A program made the position numbers and the translations under genes. The notes under the pieces are model-generated. The model had not been told where the DNA came from and searched no databases. It worked only from the letters and a program-made list of their open reading frames with translations. DNA of 64,000 nt from Candidatus Woesearchaeota archaeon. GTDB taxonomy: Archaea > Nanobdellota > Nanobdellia > Woesearchaeales > SKIA01. The DNA lies in the NCBI GenBank assembly GCA_047602905.1, contig JBLKOP010000003.1, positions 15,508 to 79,507 on the forward strand, written 5' to 3'. The number at the start of each line of letters is the position of its first letter. Position 1 is the stretch's first letter. Below are positions 20,246 to 46,479 of the stretch, one piece after another.

Positions 20246-22344
20246 AACAACAACTCATCATACTAACACTCCTACTCTTTCTTGCACCAACAATAACTGA
20301 CCAACTAAACAGCGACTTCGCAGAAGGAACAAACACAAACATCAACATCAGCAACAACCAACTACGAATTACCGGAAGCCCAGGAAACTACGCAGCAACA
20401 GCAGAATACATAAGCCAAGAACACGACCTAGGAAGCAACCCAACAGCAACGATTAGCTGGAGCGCAACCAACCCAGCAAACACAACCCTACTACTCAGCA
20501 CACGAACAAGAGAAACAAACACGAGCAGCTGGAGCACCTACACAACCTCCATCAACCCAGCAGGAAGCACCATAAACCCCCTACAACGATACGTACAGTA
20601 CCGCCTACAACTCACAAGCACAGACGCACAAAACACGCCAGTAATAGACGCAATAACAATAGTATACACAGAACAAGGAGCAGATATTCAACCACAAACA
20701 AACCTTAACGCAAACCTAGATCAAGAAACAACAGGAAGCTACAGCTTTCACACAACAATACAAGACACCGTAGAACTCACCCAAACACAAGGAAGACACA
20801 GAATAGGAAGTGACGCATACACAACATACCAAGCACTCAACCACGTAGTAAACGATACATACCGACTCGTAATACCTGCGCCAACAGGAAACTGGGTTGC
20901 TCGCAGAGGAGAACTCCTACACATACAAATACAAGCAACCAACGAGAACAACATAACAAACCAAGAAACCTACAGCATACTCATACAAGAAATAAACACC
21001 CCACCAACCATTACCGCAGTAGCAGACCAACAAGCAACAGAAGGAGAAGAACTTGTTCTTAGCGTACTCGCAAACGACGCAGACGCAGACACACTCAACT
21101 ACACAGCAACACACGGAACAATAACCAAAATAACCAATACCGTAGCGGACTGGAGCTGGACGCCACAAGCAAGCAACATAGGACTAACCAACGTAACCAT
21201 AACAGTAACTGACGGAATAGACAGCGCAAACACAACCTTTAGCGTGAATACAACACCAAGCCCAAAAGCACCAGTAATACGAGAAATAAGTGACGTAACA
21301 GCGTACTACGGAGAAAGAATAATCATAGACATAATCGTAGATGATGAGAATGAAGAAGAAAACATAACGTACCAAATAAGCCCAAACATACCCATAACGC
21401 CCATACAAACAAACCAAAGCAACACGTACATAGGACGAATGAACTTTAGCGCGTTTGACGACTACAAAGGACAAACAACCATTCATGTAACCGTAACAGA
21501 CAAAGACGGACTAACAGACACAACAAACTTCACCCTAACAATAAACTACTGCGGAGACGGAATATGCCAAGCTAACGAGAACGCAGACACCTGCCCAACA
21601 GACTGCGCAGGAACACAAAGAAACAACTACCTAGCAGTACAATTCCCAGACAGGATATGCACGAACACAACACTAACAATAACCACGCATAACGCAAGCA
21701 GCAGATACGAGTGCTTCTTAGACAAAAGAACCACACCAACAGCAGCAGCGTGGTGTGAAGAACTCCCAGGAGCAGAAATCATTTTTTACCGCCTAAACGG
21801 AGAAGTACGAACACAACAAGCAACAGCAACAACAGACAACCAAGGACAAGCAACCTTTACAGCAGAAGAAGAAGGAAGATACAGACTAGTAGCAGAAGCA
21901 GACGAGCACGTAGGAGTAACGGAGACATTCATAGCAAGAGACTGCAGCGAAGACATAACAGACCAAAGAAGAACAATACAAACACAAAGACCAAACCTAC
22001 AAGCAGGAACAATGCAACCAGTACTGCCAAGACCAGAAAGACCAGACATAACAGAAGAGCAAAGAAACATACTCGCAATAACAATATGGTTCGTACTCCT
22101 CCCGCTACTCATAGCAACAATGATATACACAACAACAGAATACTACGCACTCTACAAAGACACAGACCCAACACTACTAAAAATACAAATCTTCCTGTAC
22201 GAAAAAAAACAACAACTCAAACCGTACATAGAGCCAATACAAGAAAAATTACGTCCCGCGCTAAACTGGCTACAACAAACAATTATTCAACCTCTACAAG
22301 AACAAGTAATACAACCAATAAAACAGAAAATACAAAGAAAGTAG
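20242..22344 (+). CDS. Secreted, membrane-anchored surface protein with Ig/cadherin-like repeats
   Basis: Signal peptide; NTPPTIT...DADADTLNYT...ITVTDG repeats; CGDGICQANENADTCPTDC motif; C-terminal TM. Confidence 0.82.
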   Translation: MKQQLIILTLLLFLAPTITDQLNSDFAEGTNTNINISNNQLRITGSPGNYAATAEYISQEHDLGSNPTATISWSATNPANTTLLLSTRTRETNTSSWSTYTTSINPAGSTINPLQRYVQYRLQLTSTDAQNTPVIDAITIVYTEQGADIQPQTNLNANLDQETTGSYSFHTTIQDTVELTQTQGRHRIGSDAYTTYQALNHVVNDTYRLVIPAPTGNWVARRGELLHIQIQATNENNITNQETYSILIQEINTPPTITAVADQQATEGEELVLSVLANDADADTLNYTATHGTITKITNTVADWSWTPQASNIGLTNVTITVTDGIDSANTTFSVNTTPSPKAPVIREISDVTAYYGERIIIDIIVDDENEEENITYQISPNIPITPIQTNQSNTYIGRMNFSAFDDYKGQTTIHVTVTDKDGLTDTTNFTLTINYCGDGICQANENADTCPTDCAGTQRNNYLAVQFPDRICTNTTLTITTHNASSRYECFLDKRTTPTAAAWCEELPGAEIIFYRLNGEVRTQQATATTDNQGQATFTAEEEGRYRLVAEADEHVGVTETFIARDCSEDITDQRRTIQTQRPNLQAGTMQPVLPRPERPDITEEQRNILAITIWFVLLPLLIATMIYTTTEYYALYKDTDPTLLKIQIFLYEKKQQLKPYIEPIQEKLRPALNWLQQTIIQPLQEQVIQPIKQKIQRK

Positions 22345-22382
22345 ACAGAAAACTTATAAACAACTCTTTCTGAGTATACCTA

Positions 22383-22442
22383 ATGAACACGACAGGCTAC
22401 CAAACAAGCACCCTTCTAAACCTGGTAGTCGTCACGCTATAA
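22383..22442 (+). CDS. Candidate leader peptide (ilvL-like) for the acetolactate synthase gene
   Basis: MNTTGYQTSTLLNLVVVTL*; CTTATAAA box at 22353-22360; hairpin at 22450-22479. Confidence 0.6.
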   Translation: MNTTGYQTSTLLNLVVVTL

Positions 22443-22496
22443 CAAGCACGTGTTCCCATAAAACATTGTCTGGGAGCACAGATACTTCTCTACACC

Positions 22497-24281
22497 ATGA
22501 AACAAACAACCAAACTGCAAGAACCGGCCGCGACAACAAAGCAAGAACAAGCAGTACAAGTCGTCAAACAAACCTTTACAGGAGGAGAAATACTTCTTAA
22601 AACACTTCAAGAACTCGCAAAAAAACACCCAGGAATACGAAGAATAGCAGGACACCACGGAGGAGCAATACTACCGTTTTATGAGTACTACACAAAAAGC
22701 GAGTTGTACAAAGGATACATACACGCACCAAACGAACAAATAGCCGGCTTTATCGCAAAAGGGTACGCAAATACCAACAACGAAGTAGGAGTAAGTATCG
22801 CAACAAGCGGGCCAGGAGCAACAAATCTCCTCACACCATTGTATGACTGTTTTATGGACAGCACACCAGTAGTGTTCATAACAGCAAACGTACCAACAAC
22901 CGTATCAGGAAGCATGGCATTTCAAGAAGCACCAATAACACACATGGCTTCAACAGTAACAAAAAAAACGTACTACGTAACGCAAGTAGAATACCTTCAA
23001 GAAACACTACACGAAGCATTCAACATAGCAAGAAAAGGAAGACCAGGACCAGTACTTATAGACATACCAAAAGACGTACTCCTAGCAGAGACAACACACA
23101 AACAAGTGAGTATACAAGAAAAAACCATTTCTTTACCCATCGACGTAAGCACTATACGAGAAGTGATAAGCAAAGCAAAAAAACCACTTATTTACGCAGG
23201 AGGAGGAATAAAAATGGCAGACGCAAGTACTTTGCTAAGAGAATTCGCAAACAAATACGAAATACCAGTAACCACCACGCTCAAAGCAAAAGGCGTATAC
23301 CCAGAAACACACCCACTCGCACTGCGCATGCTAGGAATGCACGGAACAGCATACGCAAACTACGCAGTACACGAAGCAGATCTCTTACTCGTACTCGGAG
23401 CGCGCTTTGATGACCGAGTAACAGCAAACCCTGATGAGTTTGCAAAACAAGCATACATCATACACATAGACATAGACCCAAAAGGAATAGGAAAAAACAG
23501 ACAACCACACATAACACTACAAGCAAACGTAAAAGAAGCACTCAAAGAACTGCTCAAAGAAGACATACAAACACAAGACTACACTCAGTGGCATAAACGA
23601 ATACAAGAACTCAAACAAACATACCCACTAGACTATGACAGAGACAAAACACTCAAAGCACAACAAGCAATAGACATCCTCTGGGCAATAACCAAAGGAG
23701 AGCACGCAATAATAGCAGACGTAGGACAACACCAGATGTGGGCAGCACAACACTACGCAACAGCAATACCAAACGGCTTTGACACAAGCGCAGGAAGCGG
23801 AACAATGGGCTGTAGCTTAGCACAAGGGATAGGAACGTACTACGCACGAAGAGAAGCAGGAGAACAAACGCCCGTAACAGTAATTTGTGGAGATGAGAGT
23901 TTTTTGATGAACCCACAAACACTCAAGCTATACGCACAAGAACAACTAGACATACTCGTACTCATCATAGACAACAAAGAAGAAGACGGAACACCAGGAG
24001 GAATGGTAAAACAATGGTACACAGACGTGCACAACAACACACAACAACCAGTAAAAGGAAAAACAGACATAGTAGCAATAAGTGAAGGCTTTGGAGTACC
24101 AGCAGTAGAAACAAACAACGCAGAAGAACTCATAAGACACATAGAAGAAGCAGTTAGTGTGAAGGGGCCAAGACTCATCAACATACGAGTAAACCCAAAC
24201 GAGAAATGCCTACCAATACTACCACCAGGAAAAACAATCAACGAAATGAGAACGTATCAAGATATCTCATCAGGAAGATAG
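22497..24281 (+). CDS. ilvB: Acetolactate synthase large subunit (TPP enzyme)
   Basis: TSGPGATN, AFQE, GRPGPVLIDIPKD, MLGMHGT, GARFDDRVT, DVGQHQMWAAQ, GMVKQW. Confidence 0.9.
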   Translation: MKQTTKLQEPAATTKQEQAVQVVKQTFTGGEILLKTLQELAKKHPGIRRIAGHHGGAILPFYEYYTKSELYKGYIHAPNEQIAGFIAKGYANTNNEVGVSIATSGPGATNLLTPLYDCFMDSTPVVFITANVPTTVSGSMAFQEAPITHMASTVTKKTYYVTQVEYLQETLHEAFNIARKGRPGPVLIDIPKDVLLAETTHKQVSIQEKTISLPIDVSTIREVISKAKKPLIYAGGGIKMADASTLLREFANKYEIPVTTTLKAKGVYPETHPLALRMLGMHGTAYANYAVHEADLLLVLGARFDDRVTANPDEFAKQAYIIHIDIDPKGIGKNRQPHITLQANVKEALKELLKEDIQTQDYTQWHKRIQELKQTYPLDYDRDKTLKAQQAIDILWAITKGEHAIIADVGQHQMWAAQHYATAIPNGFDTSAGSGTMGCSLAQGIGTYYARREAGEQTPVTVICGDESFLMNPQTLKLYAQEQLDILVLIIDNKEEDGTPGGMVKQWYTDVHNNTQQPVKGKTDIVAISEGFGVPAVETNNAEELIRHIEEAVSVKGPRLINIRVNPNEKCLPILPPGKTINEMRTYQDISSGR

Positions 24282-25213
24282 GAGAGTTTGTAATAGCTAA
24301 TAGTCGATGCGTAGCGGATTTCACGAATCCACTGAAACTGCTGCCTGAGAGAATCAAGGTAATCAAGCAGCTCGTTTTTGTCTGTAAATTCCATTTCAGC
24401 CTCGAAATCTGCGCATAACAGACCTGAAACTGTAAATACTGTGTTAGGATGCAGCTCTATTTCGCTACGTAAGGAGGCTAGGCCAGTAAGGTTATCTAGT
24501 TGAAATTCCAAATAATAATTCTGCATCCCAATCTTTGAAATATTAATATCTGCACGTGTCGCCAACAATAACCCATTCTGCTGAAGCTTTCGTAGATGGT
24601 AGGTGACTACACGTGCGCTGACACCAGCGTGTTGTGCAATATCAATTGCCTTCATACGTGCATCTTTATTGAGTGCACGTAGGATTGATATGTCCGTTTT
24701 GTCATACTCATTTGTAGTCTCTGAGCGCACCGTCTCTCTGCTAAAACGATCAGAACCTAGATATCCTCTCGTAAACTCCTTAAGTGAGGTGATGATGCTA
24801 ATCTGTATGTCATCGATATATTGTGTGAATTGCTTTTTAAGTTGTGATACTTTCTGCTCAAAGGAAGAAATATCTTTGTGCCAACTAATGAAGCCAATAT
24901 CGTATTCTCCGTCGCGAAGAAATATTTGGGTTGCTCCAACACGTGTATCGATAAACGACATGATTTCTTCGTGCTTGTCTCTTGTTGCTCTGATGACGCG
25001 TAAGTATGTTCGGATGGTGTGGTACCCTAGTGCTCCCATGTTCAGAATGGGATAATATCTGTTGATGATTCCTTCCTCATTGAGTTTGTCAATGTGATAA
25101 TTAACGACTTCTCTGCTGGCATGGATACGCTTAGCGATTTTCGTGGCAGGGATTCGTGCGTCAACATCAAGCTGAGCGAGTACTTTTTGGTCTTTTTTCT
25201 TCAAATATTTCAA
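24257..25213 (-). CDS. Lrp/AsnC-family regulator with two tandem HTH-RAM units
   Basis: LDVDARIPATKIAKRI...VNYHIDKL; LNKDARMKAIDIAQHAGVS...TYHLRKL; TTG start. Confidence 0.88.
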   Translation of the reverse strand: MKYLKKKDQKVLAQLDVDARIPATKIAKRIHASREVVNYHIDKLNEEGIINRYYPILNMGALGYHTIRTYLRVIRATRDKHEEIMSFIDTRVGATQIFLRDGEYDIGFISWHKDISSFEQKVSQLKKQFTQYIDDIQISIITSLKEFTRGYLGSDRFSRETVRSETTNEYDKTDISILRALNKDARMKAIDIAQHAGVSARVVTYHLRKLQQNGLLLATRADINISKIGMQNYYLEFQLDNLTGLASLRSEIELHPNTVFTVSGLLCADFEAEMEFTDKNELLDYLDSLRQQFQWIREIRYASTISYYKLSYLPDEIS

Positions 25214-25289: not shown

Positions 25290-26324
25290 ATGAAATATCT
25301 CTATATTTGTATCGCAGTCGTACTCGCAGCACTCATCACAGGAGTGAGCATCACAGGAATGGCAACGAAAAACACTCAAGAACCATTAATAGGGGCACTG
25401 CTATCGCTAAGTGGAGCCAACGCGGGATTTGGAGAAAATCTTAGAAAAGGACTTGAACTTGGACTTGAAAACTCACACCAACTCGTCATAGAAGACACGC
25501 AAAGTAACACTCGAAACGCAGTCAGTGCAGCACAAAAACTCATCGCAGCAGGAGCAGATATCTTGCTGACAGAATACAGCGAAGACTCATACGCAGTCAT
25601 CGAAGTTGCAGAACAGTACGGTGTACCAGTTGTATGTATCGCATGCGGAAGCGTTGGGACAACAGAAAAGAGTGAATTACTCTACAGCACATGGCCATCA
25701 GACGCCATAGAAACAGCAGCGCTTGCAGAGTACGCAGACTCATATGAACATATTGGAATTATTCAGACAGAATCAATATGGGAAAACACGCTTTCAGAGA
25801 GCTTCAAAGAACAAAGCAATGCACAAATAACACACATGCAAACTCTAAGAGACACTAAGAGCTTCCAGACTGAACTGCTCAGGATACAAAACACAGACAT
25901 CATCTACGCACCAGTGTACGAGCAGCGCTACCCGCTTCTCTTCAAACAAGCAAAAGAATTAGGAATTGACGCACAGATAATGACCACAAGCTGGATTAAC
26001 GAACCAAACATTCTACAAGCATGCGCAAGTGTATGCGAAGGAGCAATCGTACCTCAGTACGCAAAACCAAACGAAGCATTTGTCAAACAATATGAAGAGA
26101 TGTACGGAGAAAAACCAGGAACTGCAGCAGACATCGCCTACGACACAGGACTACTGATTAACGCATATCTAGATCAAGAAGAACCATTTCGCGTCTTCAT
26201 GCAGGATATACAGATTCAAGGAGCGACAGGAACACTTAGCTTCGACGCAACCGGAGCACGAATGCACAGAGACGTGAACCTATATGTTATACAAAACCAG
26301 AAACTCGTAGAAATACAAAAATAA
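25290..26324 (+). CDS. LivJ/LivK-like (periplasmic binding protein type 1) substrate-binding protein
   Basis: N-terminal anchor; IGALLSLSG...GENLRKGLEL, EDTQ, AYD, GATGTLSFD. Confidence 0.85.
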   Translation: MKYLYICIAVVLAALITGVSITGMATKNTQEPLIGALLSLSGANAGFGENLRKGLELGLENSHQLVIEDTQSNTRNAVSAAQKLIAAGADILLTEYSEDSYAVIEVAEQYGVPVVCIACGSVGTTEKSELLYSTWPSDAIETAALAEYADSYEHIGIIQTESIWENTLSESFKEQSNAQITHMQTLRDTKSFQTELLRIQNTDIIYAPVYEQRYPLLFKQAKELGIDAQIMTTSWINEPNILQACASVCEGAIVPQYAKPNEAFVKQYEEMYGEKPGTAADIAYDTGLLINAYLDQEEPFRVFMQDIQIQGATGTLSFDATGARMHRDVNLYVIQNQKLVEIQK

Positions 26325-44586: not shown

Positions 44587-46479
44587 ATGACTGATTTCAT
44601 AAAAGAAGTACTTAAGCACGTACCTAAAGAAAAAATTACTGAGGCTTGCTTTGAGGGAGCAAACATTGTTTTGTACACGAAAAGTAAGAAGTTCTTTCTT
44701 AATCATTCTCAAGAAGTGCGCAAAGCAGTTGCTGCAGTAAAGAAGCGTATTGAGGTGCGTCCAGACCCGGATATGTGTCTTTCTCAAGCCGAGGCGCAAG
44801 AGAAGATTATGAAGATGTTTGAGGAGGAGGTGGGCATTGCACAAATCATTTTTGATCCTCGCAGAAGCGTTGTTATTATTGAGGCTGAGAAGCCAGGAAG
44901 TATTATTGGTCGAGGAGGAGAAGGCCTTGACAAGATTAAGGAAGAGACGTTGTGGCTTCCTGTTATTAAACGAACGCCTCCTCTTCGCAGTACGCACTTA
45001 GAAAAAATTCGTAGTGTGCTGTATGAGAATAGTGATGAGAGACGTAAGTTTCTTAACGCTGCTGGTGAGCGTATTCAACGTCCTAAAAAAACTCCTGGTC
45101 AGGAGTGGGTTCGCATAACGTATCTTGGTAGTGGTCGACAAGTTGGTCGTAGTGCTTTGTTATTGCAGACTCCTGAGAGTAAAGTATTGTTTGATTGCGG
45201 TATTGATGTTTCTCGTGATGATGAAGAAGCGTATCCTATCCTAGAGGCTCCTGAGTTTCGTTTAGAGGAGCTTGATGCTATTGTTGTTAGTCACGCGCAC
45301 CTTGATCACACCGGTTTTATTCCGTACTTGTTTAAGTACGGGTATCGTGGTCCGGTGTATTGTACGCTTCCTACCCGTGATATTATGAGCTTAACGCAGC
45401 TGGATACGATTAAGATTGCTCGTCACGAGGGTAAAGAGCCTATTTATACTGCTGATGATATTAAGCAGCAGTTACTTCACACTATTGATTTGGAGTATGA
45501 GGAGGTGTGTGATATTACTCCTGATGTTCGTATTACGTTTTATAATTCTGGGCACATGCTTGGTGCTGCTATGGTTCACATTCATGTGGGTAATGGGCTT
45601 CATAATATTGTGTACTCAGCTGATATTAAGTACACGGATAGTTTCTTGCTTGCTAAGGCGAAAACGAAGTTTCCTCGTTGCGAAACGCTTCTTATTGAAG
45701 GAACGTATGGAGGTAAGGATAACGTTCTTCCTCCTATGCATGAACAAAACGAGATCTTTGCTGATATTATTAAGAAAACGATTGCTCGTAAGGGAAAACT
45801 TTTAGTTCCTGTTCTTGGTAGTGGTCGTGGCCAGGAGATCATGGCTCATATTCATTACATGGTTCGTAAGGGAGAAATTGATCCTGTTCCTGTCTATGTT
45901 GATGGGATGGTTTGGGATATTACTGCTCTTCACACCGCTTATCCGGAGTTCTTGAATCCTCAGATGCGTAAACAAATCTTTCATAAAGATGATAATCCGT
46001 TTTTAGCAGAGTATATCAAGCACGTTCCTAGTGGTAAGGAGCGACAAAACATTATTGATGGTGATGAGTCCTGTATTATTTTGGCTACGAGCGGTATGCT
46101 TGTTGGTGGTGCTTCTGTGCAGTACCTTAAGGGGCTTGCTGAGCAGAAAAAGAATTCTTTAGTGTTTTGTTCCTATCTTGGTCCTGGTAGTCTTGGTCGG
46201 CGCATTCATGATGGGGAGAAAGAAATTGCTTTCTCTAAGGGTAATGGTGGCCAGGACGTGTTGTACATTAACCTTGAGGTTCATAAAATTGAGATTACTG
46301 GTCACGCTGATAGGCGTGAACTTATGGCTTTTGTAAAGAACGTGCAGCCTCGTCCTAGGCGTATTATGATTAATCACGGCGAGGTTAGTCGCTGTATGGA
46401 TTTAGCGAGTTCTCTTCATAAGAAGTATCGTATTGAGACGCTTTGTCCTAAGAACTTGGATGCTATTCGTTTGCGTTAG
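44587..46479 (+). CDS. aCPSF1/FttA beta-CASP ribonuclease with KH domains
   Basis: KH region EKPGSIIG; VGRS, HAHLDH, GHMLG, GHADR, NHGE. Confidence 0.95.
   Translation: MTDFIKEVLKHVPKEKITEACFEGANIVLYTKSKKFFLNHSQEVRKAVAAVKKRIEVRPDPDMCLSQAEAQEKIMKMFEEEVGIAQIIFDPRRSVVIIEAEKPGSIIGRGGEGLDKIKEETLWLPVIKRTPPLRSTHLEKIRSVLYENSDERRKFLNAAGERIQRPKKTPGQEWVRITYLGSGRQVGRSALLLQTPESKVLFDCGIDVSRDDEEAYPILEAPEFRLEELDAIVVSHAHLDHTGFIPYLFKYGYRGPVYCTLPTRDIMSLTQLDTIKIARHEGKEPIYTADDIKQQLLHTIDLEYEEVCDITPDVRITFYNSGHMLGAAMVHIHVGNGLHNIVYSADIKYTDSFLLAKAKTKFPRCETLLIEGTYGGKDNVLPPMHEQNEIFADIIKKTIARKGKLLVPVLGSGRGQEIMAHIHYMVRKGEIDPVPVYVDGMVWDITALHTAYPEFLNPQMRKQIFHKDDNPFLAEYIKHVPSGKERQNIIDGDESCIILATSGMLVGGASVQYLKGLAEQKKNSLVFCSYLGPGSLGRRIHDGEKEIAFSKGNGGQDVLYINLEVHKIEITGHADRRELMAFVKNVQPRPRRIMINHGEVSRCMDLASSLHKKYRIETLCPKNLDAIRLR

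Follow-up and report, generated by a model that had tools for sequence, protein, structure and literature searches.

In the stretch of DNA analysed here (64,000 nucleotides from a woesearchaeon, a small DPANN archaeon; hereafter the window), an AHAS-like gene is preceded by a short upstream ORF (uORF) that, judging from its sequence and from those of its counterparts elsewhere, probably belongs to a conserved archaeal leader-peptide element, that is, a ribosome-mediated Val/Leu sensor controlling this orphan gene. Nine further archaeal genomes have a leader of this design ahead of related enzymes, and for this reason a ribosome-based amino-acid sensor is the probable explanation. The anatomy of the leader, the geometry of its promoter, its recurrence within the superclade of the enzyme (10/10 loci) and the selection acting on its RNA structure are directly supported by the data. 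Attenuation by leader peptides is textbook knowledge for bacteria, and searches of a paper library gave no described case in archaea.

Promoter and leader ORF

All the features of the leader and of its gene described below are on the + strand, except for one inverted repeat that has no strand. The BRE/TATA promoter (22346..22364) was located with a matrix trained on genes of the same genome, and comprises a TATA core, cTTATAAa, at 22353-22360 and an A-rich BRE-like stretch at 22349-22352. Its matrix scores are 11.0 for an implied start at 22384 and 9.3 for one at 22383, the probability of a score of at least 10 at a random position being 0.0004. The geometry is that of the leaderless genes of this genome, in which leaderless starts dominate: 235 ATGs lie behind TATA hits at offsets of 37-39, vs. 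ca. 11 per control offset. By chance, an ATG would occupy a leaderless register (any of three) downstream of a TATA hit in ca. 3% of the cases. Here, this register is occupied by the ATG (22383-22385) of a leaderless leader ORF of 19 codons, MNTTGYQTSTLLNLVVVTL, that ends with a TAA (22440-22442) and thus spans 22383..22442, with its stop 54 nt before the ATG of the main gene. The peptide has four Leu, five Thr and three consecutive Val, as the initial annotation had read it, and the coordinates proposed there for uORF, TATA box and hairpins are correct within 1 nt. The Val codons (GTA GTC GTC, 22425..22433), located two codons before the stop, are the presumed stalling site.

The main ATG (22497), on the other side of the leader, has neither a leaderless TATA by the promoter matrix nor a Shine-Dalgarno motif, and follows a pyrimidine-rich tract, CTTCTCTACACC (22485..22496), devoid of Shine-Dalgarno motifs and of T-runs. 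A repeat search identified an exact direct repeat of 9 nt, AACAAGCAC, with one copy in the loop of hairpin 1 (22403-22411) and the other across the uORF stop (22441-22449). There is also an inverted repeat, ATACAAAGAAAG / CTTTCTGAGTAT (22330..22377, arms of 12 nt that are 83% complementary, 24 nt between them), that flanks the TATA box and may be an operator.

Within this 0.96 Mb genome the arrangement is found only once. Short ORFs (10-40 codons) number 5433, among which a run of at least three Val appears in 65 and a leaderless-register TATA scoring at least 7 in 19, and the ORF at 22383-22442 is the only one that has both, an arrangement far beyond chance. When ORFs of 10-49 codons are considered, 19 are found at leaderless registers vs. 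ca. 12 expected, and this is the only one with a large gene located some distance downstream; the idea that uORFs serve genome-wide to load ribosomes is weakly supported. There is no second copy of the leader elsewhere in the genome, no match at the DNA level in six other genomes of the family, and nothing below E = 1, i.e., no family match, in an Rfam search.

Recurrence in other archaeal genomes

The initial annotation had proposed to look in DPANN genomes for uORFs rich in branched-chain amino acids ahead of ilvB homologs, and this test gave a positive result. A leaderless uORF with a Val run is present in all ten loci of the AHAS-like superclade for which the DNA was examined (L001, L003, L005, L169, L221, L225, L226, L227, L228, and L231, belonging to 10 genomes from 9 genera and 9 families, all within a single order), vs. 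none of the other 41 AHAS/TPP loci in that order. A set of 11 TPP-enzyme loci representing other orders of the class did not contain it either. The TATA boxes of the ten loci are at registers -3 to +1 with scores of 5.3-11.6, and the runs contain 3-7 Val and finish 1-5 codons before the stop. The peptides vary in length from 18 to 27 residues and have unrelated N-terminal parts, but taken together they are composed of 31% Val, 22% Leu and 7% Ile (60% for the three amino acids), with 0.5% Phe, 1% Gly and no Trp. The uORF of the window is the weakest of them all, with three Val and Leu plus Val amounting to 7/19. Over the whole set of 51 loci (205,596 bp, both strands), a Val run was detected in only 12 of 1916 short ORFs, nine of them upstream of the AHAS gene on the same strand and the other three antisense and without TATA (the L221 uORF, the tenth case, is outside this count owing to the length limit).

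The enzymes accompanied by the uORF belong together. The ten form a single clade with P0002-P0012 (FastTree support 0.984), with the uORF in 10/10 of the locus rows inside and 0/41 outside, while a quick IQ-TREE phylogeny with fewer sequences did not separate the three uORF-bearing lineages in it from bacterial AHAS. The closest homologs of the enzyme of the window are P0002-P0005 (55-65% identity); the conservation of the leader is shown across enzymes that are 30-40% identical. Searching genome and metagenome contigs for close relatives with the pattern VGQHQMW retrieved mostly canonical AHAS, with at most 41% identity, and none of the 194 loci collected had the clade motifs. A search at the level of the order (401 genomes) gave enzyme identities of at most 39%, plus one fragment at 47%, and the AHAS-like gene is absent from same-genus genomes. 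The genomic context is not conserved either, with unrelated genes (SHMT, arginase, epimerase, methyltransferase, and others) flanking the ten. A second apparently conserved uORF (MASxIALIKGxNKALNF...) before canonical AHAS genes was discarded, as it corresponds to the C-terminus of the upstream leuA/cimA.

Structure of the leader RNA

The leader of the window contains two hairpins. Hairpin 1 pairs codons 3-7 of the uORF (22391-22402) with the Val codons (22423-22433) through 11 pairs, one of them G.U, and has a loop of 20 nt. Hairpin 2, GUGUUCCCA / UGGGAGCAC (22450-22458 / 22471-22479), has nine pairs, one of them U.G, closing a 12-nt loop, UAAAACAUUGUC; its 5' arm is pyrimidine-rich and its 3' arm is Shine-Dalgarno-like (GGGAG), the 3' end of the 16S rRNA of this genome being CCUCCU. 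Both hairpins, already proposed in the initial annotation, are recovered in the MFE fold (-28.9 kcal/mol, z = -3.09, equalled by 1 of 200 shuffles) with pair probabilities close to 1, and the uORF folds better than 98.7% of its synonymous recodings.

All ten leaders fold better than shuffled sequences (z from -2.3 to -6.1), and in 9 of the 10 loci the Val run pairs in the MFE fold with codons close to the 5' end of the uORF (codons 3-8). The comparison with synonymous recodings was passed by six uORFs (p ≤ 0.03, mean z -2.0) and the other four folded no better than their recodings; in other words, 6/10 leaders show selection for RNA structure at their synonymous positions. Hairpins with pyrimidine and purine arms and AAAAC-type loops, resembling hairpin 2, are also found in L003, L169, and L225. 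In two same-genus leaders the TATA box, the 5' arm, the Val run and the whole of hairpin 2 are kept within flanks that have diverged.

The pattern of change between these two copies bears on the nature of the short ORF, which might encode a functional hydrophobic micro-protein (e.g., a membrane anchor or a partner of the enzyme), made from the transcript of the gene, and not be a sensor. Such a role would fit the conservation of the ORF with one enzyme clade and the hydrophobic character of its C-terminal part. However, the same-genus copies differ by indels and by the length of the Val run (4 vs. 7) and keep the nucleotides of the arms, and the selection found at synonymous sites acts on the structure. 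Besides, the V/L/I runs are the only conserved part of these peptides, which vary so much in length, their 31% Val is accompanied by almost no Phe, Gly or Trp, and the hydrophobic stretch in the window is merely LLNLVVVTL, interrupted by Asn and Thr. We consider a micro-protein unlikely.

Hairpin 2 could be seen in another light if the promoter at 22346-22364 served the mini-ORF, or nothing, and the enzyme were expressed from a weaker internal promoter, with this hairpin as a 5'-terminal stabiliser. There is a matrix score of 7.5 at 22406-22424, with an implied start at ca. 22444 that would leave hairpin 2 only six nt from the 5' end of the transcript. This match is weaker and is located inside the uORF, though, and the linkage of uORF and gene, conserved in ten genomes, argues for a single transcript, so that we give an internal promoter little credence.

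The structure by itself could also be the functional element, a non-coding 5' UTR involved in protein binding, RNA stability or a riboswitch, with the ORF as a by-product of a G/U-rich arm. The two strong hairpins, the conservation in sequence of loop and stem of hairpin 2 within one genus, and the fact that a GUN repeat in a hairpin arm will read as Val in one of the three frames are all compatible with this. Yet in 10/10 loci the run is in the Val frame, the ATG is at the leaderless TATA register and the stop comes 1-5 codons past the run, when the probability for a random frame would be (1/3)^10, and no Rfam family matches. A purely non-coding leader appears very unlikely to us, and we retain the leader peptide as the preferred reading.

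The leader peptide does not appear to act through a classical attenuator with switching hairpins. The 15 lowest-energy suboptimal folds examined contained no helix competing with the two hairpins, and blocking the Val codons in the folding model left hairpin 2 unaltered; according to the model, hairpins 1 and 2 are independent and there is no antiterminator/terminator pair at the window locus. The leader has no run of four or more T, in agreement with the lack of a classical U-run noted in the initial annotation, and a scan of the + strand found no terminator-like site. T-runs of at least four are present in 6/10 loci (spacer sequences judged by eye), but behind the genes of this genome they are hardly enriched (117 vs. 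108 A-run controls, of 416 genes), which makes the T-run a weak test for this organism. A model based on sequestration of the main start site was also rejected. In the folding model no structure occludes it, the mean unpaired probability from -15 to +5 around the main AUG being 0.78 in the free leader, unchanged (0.78) when a ribosome covers the Val codons and 0.69 when it has reached the stop, and over the ten loci the modelled accessibility did not shift consistently with the position of the ribosome.

The downstream enzyme

The gene presumed to be controlled by the leader (22497..24281) codes for an AHAS-like thiamine-diphosphate enzyme of 594 aa. The start at 22497 is backed by the homolog P0002, which has the same N-terminus (MKQTTKL). 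The uORF and the main gene share a reading frame (114 nt from 22383 to 22497), which is open from 22443, but a remnant of a longer N-terminus, or an extension by stop-codon read-through, is scarcely credible, given that the uORF is out of frame in the three other loci checked (L003, L005, and L169), that P0002 begins exactly as the protein from ATG 22497 does and that 38 more residues would make an extension exceeding every aligned homolog. Since the uORF is out of frame in those three loci, its placement in the window is read as a coincidence.

Although its three TPP-enzyme Pfam domains are all above their cut-offs, the protein scores 523.9 bits against TIGR00118, under the cut-off of 538.35, and its clade has GDESF in place of the canonical GDGSF and a DGTPGG insertion. 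The genome, which is 99.2% complete, has no detectable ilvN, ilvD, class IV aminotransferase (PF01063), leuA-type gene (PF00682) or alsD, and no ilvC above cut-off. The same applies to the ten host genomes as a whole, with no ilvN, no ilvD and no ilvC above cut-off, while ilvC and ilvD were both present in 5/5 genomes of the canonical clade used as a positive control. From the TIGR00118 score and the missing ilvN, ilvD and ilvC we conclude, on sequence criteria, that the gene probably codes for a divergent and orphan AHAS-like enzyme and is not the ilvB of the pathway. The proposal of ribosome-stalling control of ilvB therefore holds in part. The idea of a Leu/Val leader peptide has strong comparative support (10/10 vs. 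0/41 loci, and structure under selection in 6/10), but the gene behind it does not appear to be a pathway ilvB. [quoted passage not shown]

Proposed mode of action

The sequence of events that we envisage is as follows. Transcription would start at or beside A22383, so that the mRNA would open with the AUG of the 19-codon ORF, and ribosomes would enter this ORF leaderlessly. They would then meet the Leu codons and, near the end, the three Val codons that make up the 3' arm of hairpin 1. With charged tRNA-Val (or tRNA-Leu) scarce, a ribosome would dwell on the Val/Leu codons, holding hairpin 1 open and stopping just short of hairpin 2, whereas with an ample supply it would reach the stop codon and hairpin 2 would be transiently opened. 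The supply of branched-chain amino acids would in this way set the output of the AHAS-like gene. We infer from the sequence that the ORF is translated, that ribosomes stall on it and that expression changes. Candidate readouts are premature termination, possibly assisted by aCPSF1/FttA, re-initiation or coupling via hairpin 2, and mRNA stability. The initial annotation was right in placing an aCPSF1 gene at 44587 (44587-46479, TIGR03675 822.6 bits vs. a cut-off of 580.2).

The sign of the control could be either way, with the gene on in starvation or on in plenty, and given that the hosts do not have the rest of the pathway, the second is as plausible as the classical logic. This leads to a more speculative proposal, which we regard as possible but put forward only tentatively: in DPANN archaea with small genomes that do not make branched-chain amino acids, a leaderless Val/Leu leader peptide may gauge external amino acids without a bacterial-type terminator switch, acting through an opening of hairpin 2 coupled to translation or through polarity of the aCPSF1/FttA type, maybe with the opposite sign (the enzyme being made when valine is plentiful), and controlling an orphan enzyme that is not biosynthetic. 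If this were true, ribosome-mediated attenuation would be native to archaea and would have been re-purposed for the economy of a symbiont. The promoter of the element is archaeal, its start is leaderless and the terminator logic of bacteria is absent from it, and how it acts bears on the coupling of translation and transcription termination in archaea. It also flags an unexplained part of DPANN metabolism that is apparently tied to the supply of valine and leucine, and its ten natural variants provide a ready mutational series for reporters.

Comparison with known leader systems

In enterobacteria, the AHAS genes under the attenuators of ilvBN (ivbL) and ilvGMEDA (ilvL) follow a leader peptide rich in Val and Leu (and Ile). 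[quoted passage not shown] The archaeal leader shares with them the Val/Leu-rich peptide, but not the four segments, the Shine-Dalgarno sequence or the terminator.

A second type is that of the mycobacterial polycysteine leaderless short ORFs, described as a sensory first cistron with consecutive codons for the same amino acid, whose control needs no classical terminator (Canestrari et al., bioRxiv 10.1101/834739). A duplex that hides the downstream ribosome-binding site and is blocked by the stalled ribosome, as expected for the Cys type, was not seen here, the modelled accessibility of the main start showing no consistent shift with the position of the ribosome in the ten archaeal loci. The resemblance is in the leaderless short ORF that acts as first cistron and carries a run of codons for a single amino acid.

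A third type is that of the candidate ilvB leaders of Actinobacteria, short ORFs in which stretches of Ile, Val and Leu codons overlap a hairpin (Seliverstov et al. 2005; PMC1262725). That paper calls the mode of regulation unclear and mentions codon substitutions without effect in S. coelicolor. A T-run after hairpin 1, as in the actinobacterial leaders there described, is found in L003 and L169, while the leader of the window, unlike them, has no poly-U after the hairpin.

[quoted passage not shown] The bacterial leader is transcribed from a sigma-factor promoter, is 292 nt long with three competing hairpins, including an intrinsic terminator, and belongs to a complete ilvBNC operon, whereas the archaeal one has a BRE/TATA promoter, two non-competing hairpins, no U-run and an orphan enzyme. 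The two have in common three consecutive Val codons, a 5'-proximal hairpin and a gene of the AHAS type, as well as, by prediction for the archaeal leader, a transcript start at or beside the start codon.

Anatomy and promoter of the leader

The 152 nt intergenic spacer between the gene of a 700-residue surface protein (end 22344) and the 594-residue gene at 22497-24281 holds a compact leader on the plus strand. A BRE/TATA promoter element (core cTTATAAa, 22353-22360) is followed by a short upstream ORF (uORF), MNTTGYQTSTLLNLVVVTL, that runs from the ATG at 22383 to the TAA at 22440-22442. In the fold, codons 3-7 of this frame (22391-22402) pair with CUG and three Val codons (22423-22433) as hairpin 1, hairpin 2 (arms GUGUUCCCA and UGGGAGCAC) occupies 22450-22479, and a pyrimidine-rich tract lies directly before the main ATG at 22497. 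The initial annotation had described a TATA box, uORF and hairpins before ilvB, the acetolactate synthase (AHAS) gene, and re-inspection of the sequence confirmed this, with all coordinates right to within one base. The minimum-energy fold of 22384-22500 has -28.9 kcal/mol (z = -3.09), and one of 200 shuffles was equally stable. A 12 nt inverted repeat (22330-22341/22366-22377, 83% complementary) lies on either side of the TATA box, perhaps as an operator.

The host genome is archaeal (0.96 Mb, 99.2% complete, archaeal 16S rRNA). A crude, purpose-made ORF caller gave 915 ORFs. Where the spacer before a gene is 60 nt or longer, an A-rich BRE (-35/-34) and a TATA box (-30 to -24, both relative to the ATG) are seen, and a Shine-Dalgarno signal is not. 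Such a signal is confined to overlapping operon-internal genes (5-mer motif in 33%, vs. 1% in a control window; the 16S rRNA 3' end is CCUCCU). A matrix derived from the genome's own promoters gave 1070 matches scoring at least 8 genome-wide, and ATGs located 37, 38, and 39 nt past the start of the match numbered 41, 118, and 76, against ca. 11 at control offsets; an ATG is expected by chance at one of these three leaderless registers behind ca. 3% of TATA matches. Within the leader the matrix scores 11.0 (implied start 22384) and 9.3 (implied start 22383), the probability of a score of at least 10 at a random position being 0.0004. The next-best match in the leader (7.5) implies a start near 22444, and nothing scores 2.6 or more in the register of the main ATG. 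The strongest promoter thus sits for the leaderless mini-ORF and not for the ATG of the enzyme gene, which lacks both a leaderless promoter and a Shine-Dalgarno motif of its own. The combination is unique in this genome: among 5433 short ORFs (10-40 codons), three or more Val in a row occur in 65 and a TATA score of at least 7 in the leaderless register in 19, the leader uORF being the only one with both.

Two other features of the genome were noticed. A leaderless 52-codon ORF (G000:C4:3882-4040, minus strand) starts like an NAD-dependent epimerase (MNILVTGGAGFLGSRL...) before its stop, perhaps as the result of truncation or a frameshift. There is also an extreme strand bias in the window (1-64000) and all 14 contigs (A >> T, AT skew up to 0.56), which holds also over minus-strand genes, each contig as a whole being A-rich or T-rich.

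Recurrence with one enzyme clade

We searched 401 genomes of the order, gathered 51 loci of AHAS or related thiamine diphosphate (TPP) enzymes, and screened the 450 nt before each gene for reading frames that contain a Val run or at least five L/V/I in a row. A short ORF ended by a Val run was found at 10 of the 51: the window's own locus (L001, MNTTGYQTSTLLNLVVVTL) and L003 (MKSAITQILVLVVVVVFI), L005 (MSNDCTYQLLDLSSVVVVLA), L169 (MEKATTMDLAVILLVLVVVVLTL), L221 (MVITKTETNGLSTLLISLILVVVVVIA), L225 (MEIATTHHMTSMVILLVVVVVVVL), L226 (MNNITNLQSVLLLLVVVVLLVA), L227 (MLLKALQTVQVVLVLVVVVVLSLTA), L228 (MDVYDALVRVGVVVVVVVLL), and L231 (MDKMLNLILIVQIVVVIVVL). For L221 and L228 the start was taken as the in-frame ATG with a TATA box, instead of the one that opens the frame. 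The stop codon follows the Val run at a distance of 1-5 codons, and all ten uORFs have a TATA match (5.3-11.6 when scored with the promoter matrix from the genome of L001) with an implied start at -3 to +1 from the ATG. Over the 51 loci (205,596 bp, both strands) a Val run occurs in 12 of 1916 short ORFs; nine of these are upstream of an AHAS gene on the same strand, and the remaining three are antisense with TATA scores below 0. The L221 uORF was missed in this count only because, from its first ATG, it exceeds the 40-codon limit.

The ten loci and the closest homologous proteins (P0002-P0012) formed one clade in FastTree (support 0.984). Branched-chain-rich uORFs, which the initial annotation suggested looking for upstream of relatives' genes, are present in all ten locus rows within this clade and in none of the 41 outside, among them L178 and L185, whose genomes are unpublished. 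An IQ-TREE quick tree, with only four of the ten loci included, did not resolve these lineages from bacterial AHAS. The uORF-negative loci belong mostly (35 of 41) to the canonical AHAS clade, with the gene in many cases directly behind leuA/cimA. A Val-run uORF was also absent at 11 TPP-enzyme loci in different orders of the class. An apparently conserved uORF before canonical AHAS (MASxIALIKGxNKALNF...; L002, L174, L175, L178, L180, L181, L183, L184, L187-L191, and L193) was rejected: it encodes the C-terminus of the preceding leuA/cimA product, a trap in searches of this kind. Ambiguous is L182 (G316:C20), with a Leu/Val-rich 54-codon frame ca. 400 nt upstream of AHAS that ends ...ALLILVLPVLVLLVLLL before the stop; it is longer and more distant than the ten leaders, and its AHAS gene has a leaderless TATA of its own.

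The structure is under selection. All ten leaders are more stable than their dinucleotide shuffles (z -2.3 to -6.1), and in nine of them the Val run is paired with uORF codons about 2-8 in the minimum-energy fold. The 5' arms differ in step with the Val codons (GGCUAC/GUAGUC in L001 and L169, vs. GCACAUACCA/UGGUAGUGC in L005). Against 300 synonymous recodings each, six of the ten uORFs fold significantly better (p ≤0.03) and four do not (mean z -2.0). A same-genus pair (L169/L225) retains the TATA box, 5' arm, Val codons, and the whole of hairpin 2 including its loop, but not the central uORF sequence, the Val-run length, or the flanking sequence. The pooled peptides (Val 31%, Leu 22%, Ile 7%; Phe, Gly, and Trp nearly absent) fit regulatory codon runs and not membrane helices.

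An AHAS-like enzyme without its pathway

The product of the gene at 22497-24281 has the three TPP-enzyme domains, and its best model is TIGR00118 (biosynthetic AHAS large subunit; 523.9 bits, slightly below the 538.35 cut-off). Its closest relatives are P0002 and P0003 (65% identity), P0004 (57%), P0005 (55%), and P0006-P0012 (42-48%), one of them named Woesearchaeota archaeon at NCBI; P0002 opens with an identical MKQTTKL, which supports the ATG at 22497 as the start. The clade is marked by AGHHGGAILP, by GDESF at the position of GDGSF, and by an inserted DGTPGG.

With searches that were each positive in their control genomes, we found no ilvN, ilvD, class IV aminotransferase, HMGL-type (leuA) gene, or acetolactate decarboxylase in the window's own genome, and no ilvC over the cut-off. 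The AHAS-like gene is itself absent from four same-genus and two same-family genomes. The wider AHAS-like superclade to which this clade belongs occurs without the rest of the pathway in the ten leader-bearing genomes examined: none has ilvD, ilvN, or an ilvC that reaches the cut-off (a sub-threshold relative, at 194.8 bits, is present in one), against ilvC and ilvD beside the AHAS gene in five of five canonical-clade genomes. The ten leader-linked genes are solitary, with neighbors unrelated to one another. In one Val-run-leader host a LeuA-like gene (L239, G032:C8, 8704-10344; HMGL-like plus LeuA_dimer) lies two genes behind the orphan AHAS, and the sub-threshold IlvC-like gene (194.8 bits) elsewhere; together they may represent a partial pathway.

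In the window, a regulator gene with two Lrp/AsnC-type HTH halves (24257-25213, minus strand) is convergent with the AHAS-like gene and adjoins a lone LivJ-like periplasmic binding protein gene (Peripla_BP_6; 25290-26324, plus strand). These genes and the leader make up a cluster of branched-chain-amino-acid-linked parts.

Possible mode of action

The initial annotation had proposed ribosome-stalling control. The comparison across loci supports the reading as a leader peptide, but some parts of a classical attenuator are missing in the window leader. No competing helix occurs in the 15 suboptimal folds of lowest energy that were listed; hairpins 1 and 2 are independent of each other in the fold model, with pair probabilities of ca. 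1. A modeled ribosome on the Val codons left hairpin 2 intact, which was opened only by a ribosome at the stop codon, and the accessibility of the main start showed no consistent shift with ribosome position. The leader has no T-run of at least 4 and no terminator-like site on the plus strand. The missing T-run is weak evidence, because such runs are barely enriched behind this genome's genes (at least five T at 117 of 416 gene ends, vs. 108 of 416 for A-runs), and termination signals here thus appear not to be the usual archaeal T-tracts. Spacer T-runs of at least 4, counted by eye, are present in six of the ten loci, two of them directly behind hairpin 1 (T6 in L003, T4 in L169).

We propose that the mRNA would begin at the AUG of the uORF and that a ribosome would load co-transcriptionally, ahead of the closure of hairpin 1. 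Its speed across the Leu and Val codons would select between two outcomes. In one it would pause within the 3' arm of hairpin 1, a short way before hairpin 2; in the other it would arrive at the stop, with hairpin 2 opened. The readout might be premature termination of the uncoupled polymerase, perhaps via the termination factor aCPSF1/FttA (its gene is indeed in the window, at 44587-46479, as annotated initially), re-initiation from the Shine-Dalgarno-like GGGAG arm after the opening of hairpin 2, or mRNA stability. A logic in which the gene is on when valine is plentiful appears no less likely than the classical logic. One reason is that, in the model, hairpin 2 is opened solely by a ribosome that has read the uORF to its end; the other is the missing pathway.

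Comparison with known systems

In a literature search mainly at the level of abstracts, we found no published description of an element of this type in archaea. Among known systems, the closest come from Actinobacteria. In the ilvBNC leader of C. glutamicum (peptide MTIIRLVVVTARRLP) the start codon and the transcription start are described as one base apart (PMC11857589), similar to the archaeal uORF, whose start codon is predicted at or next to the mRNA 5' end. Candidate ilvB leaders of Actinobacteria are reported with Ile/Val/Leu runs that overlap a hairpin (PMC1262725), another bacterial example is the ilvB-II uORF motif (PMC10272879), and for the leaderless polycysteine ORFs of mycobacteria an effect on translation is described (bioRxiv 10.1101/834739). 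By analogy, the archaeal element may work like these bacterial leaders. It differs from the classical attenuator family in lacking the defining switch and terminator features.
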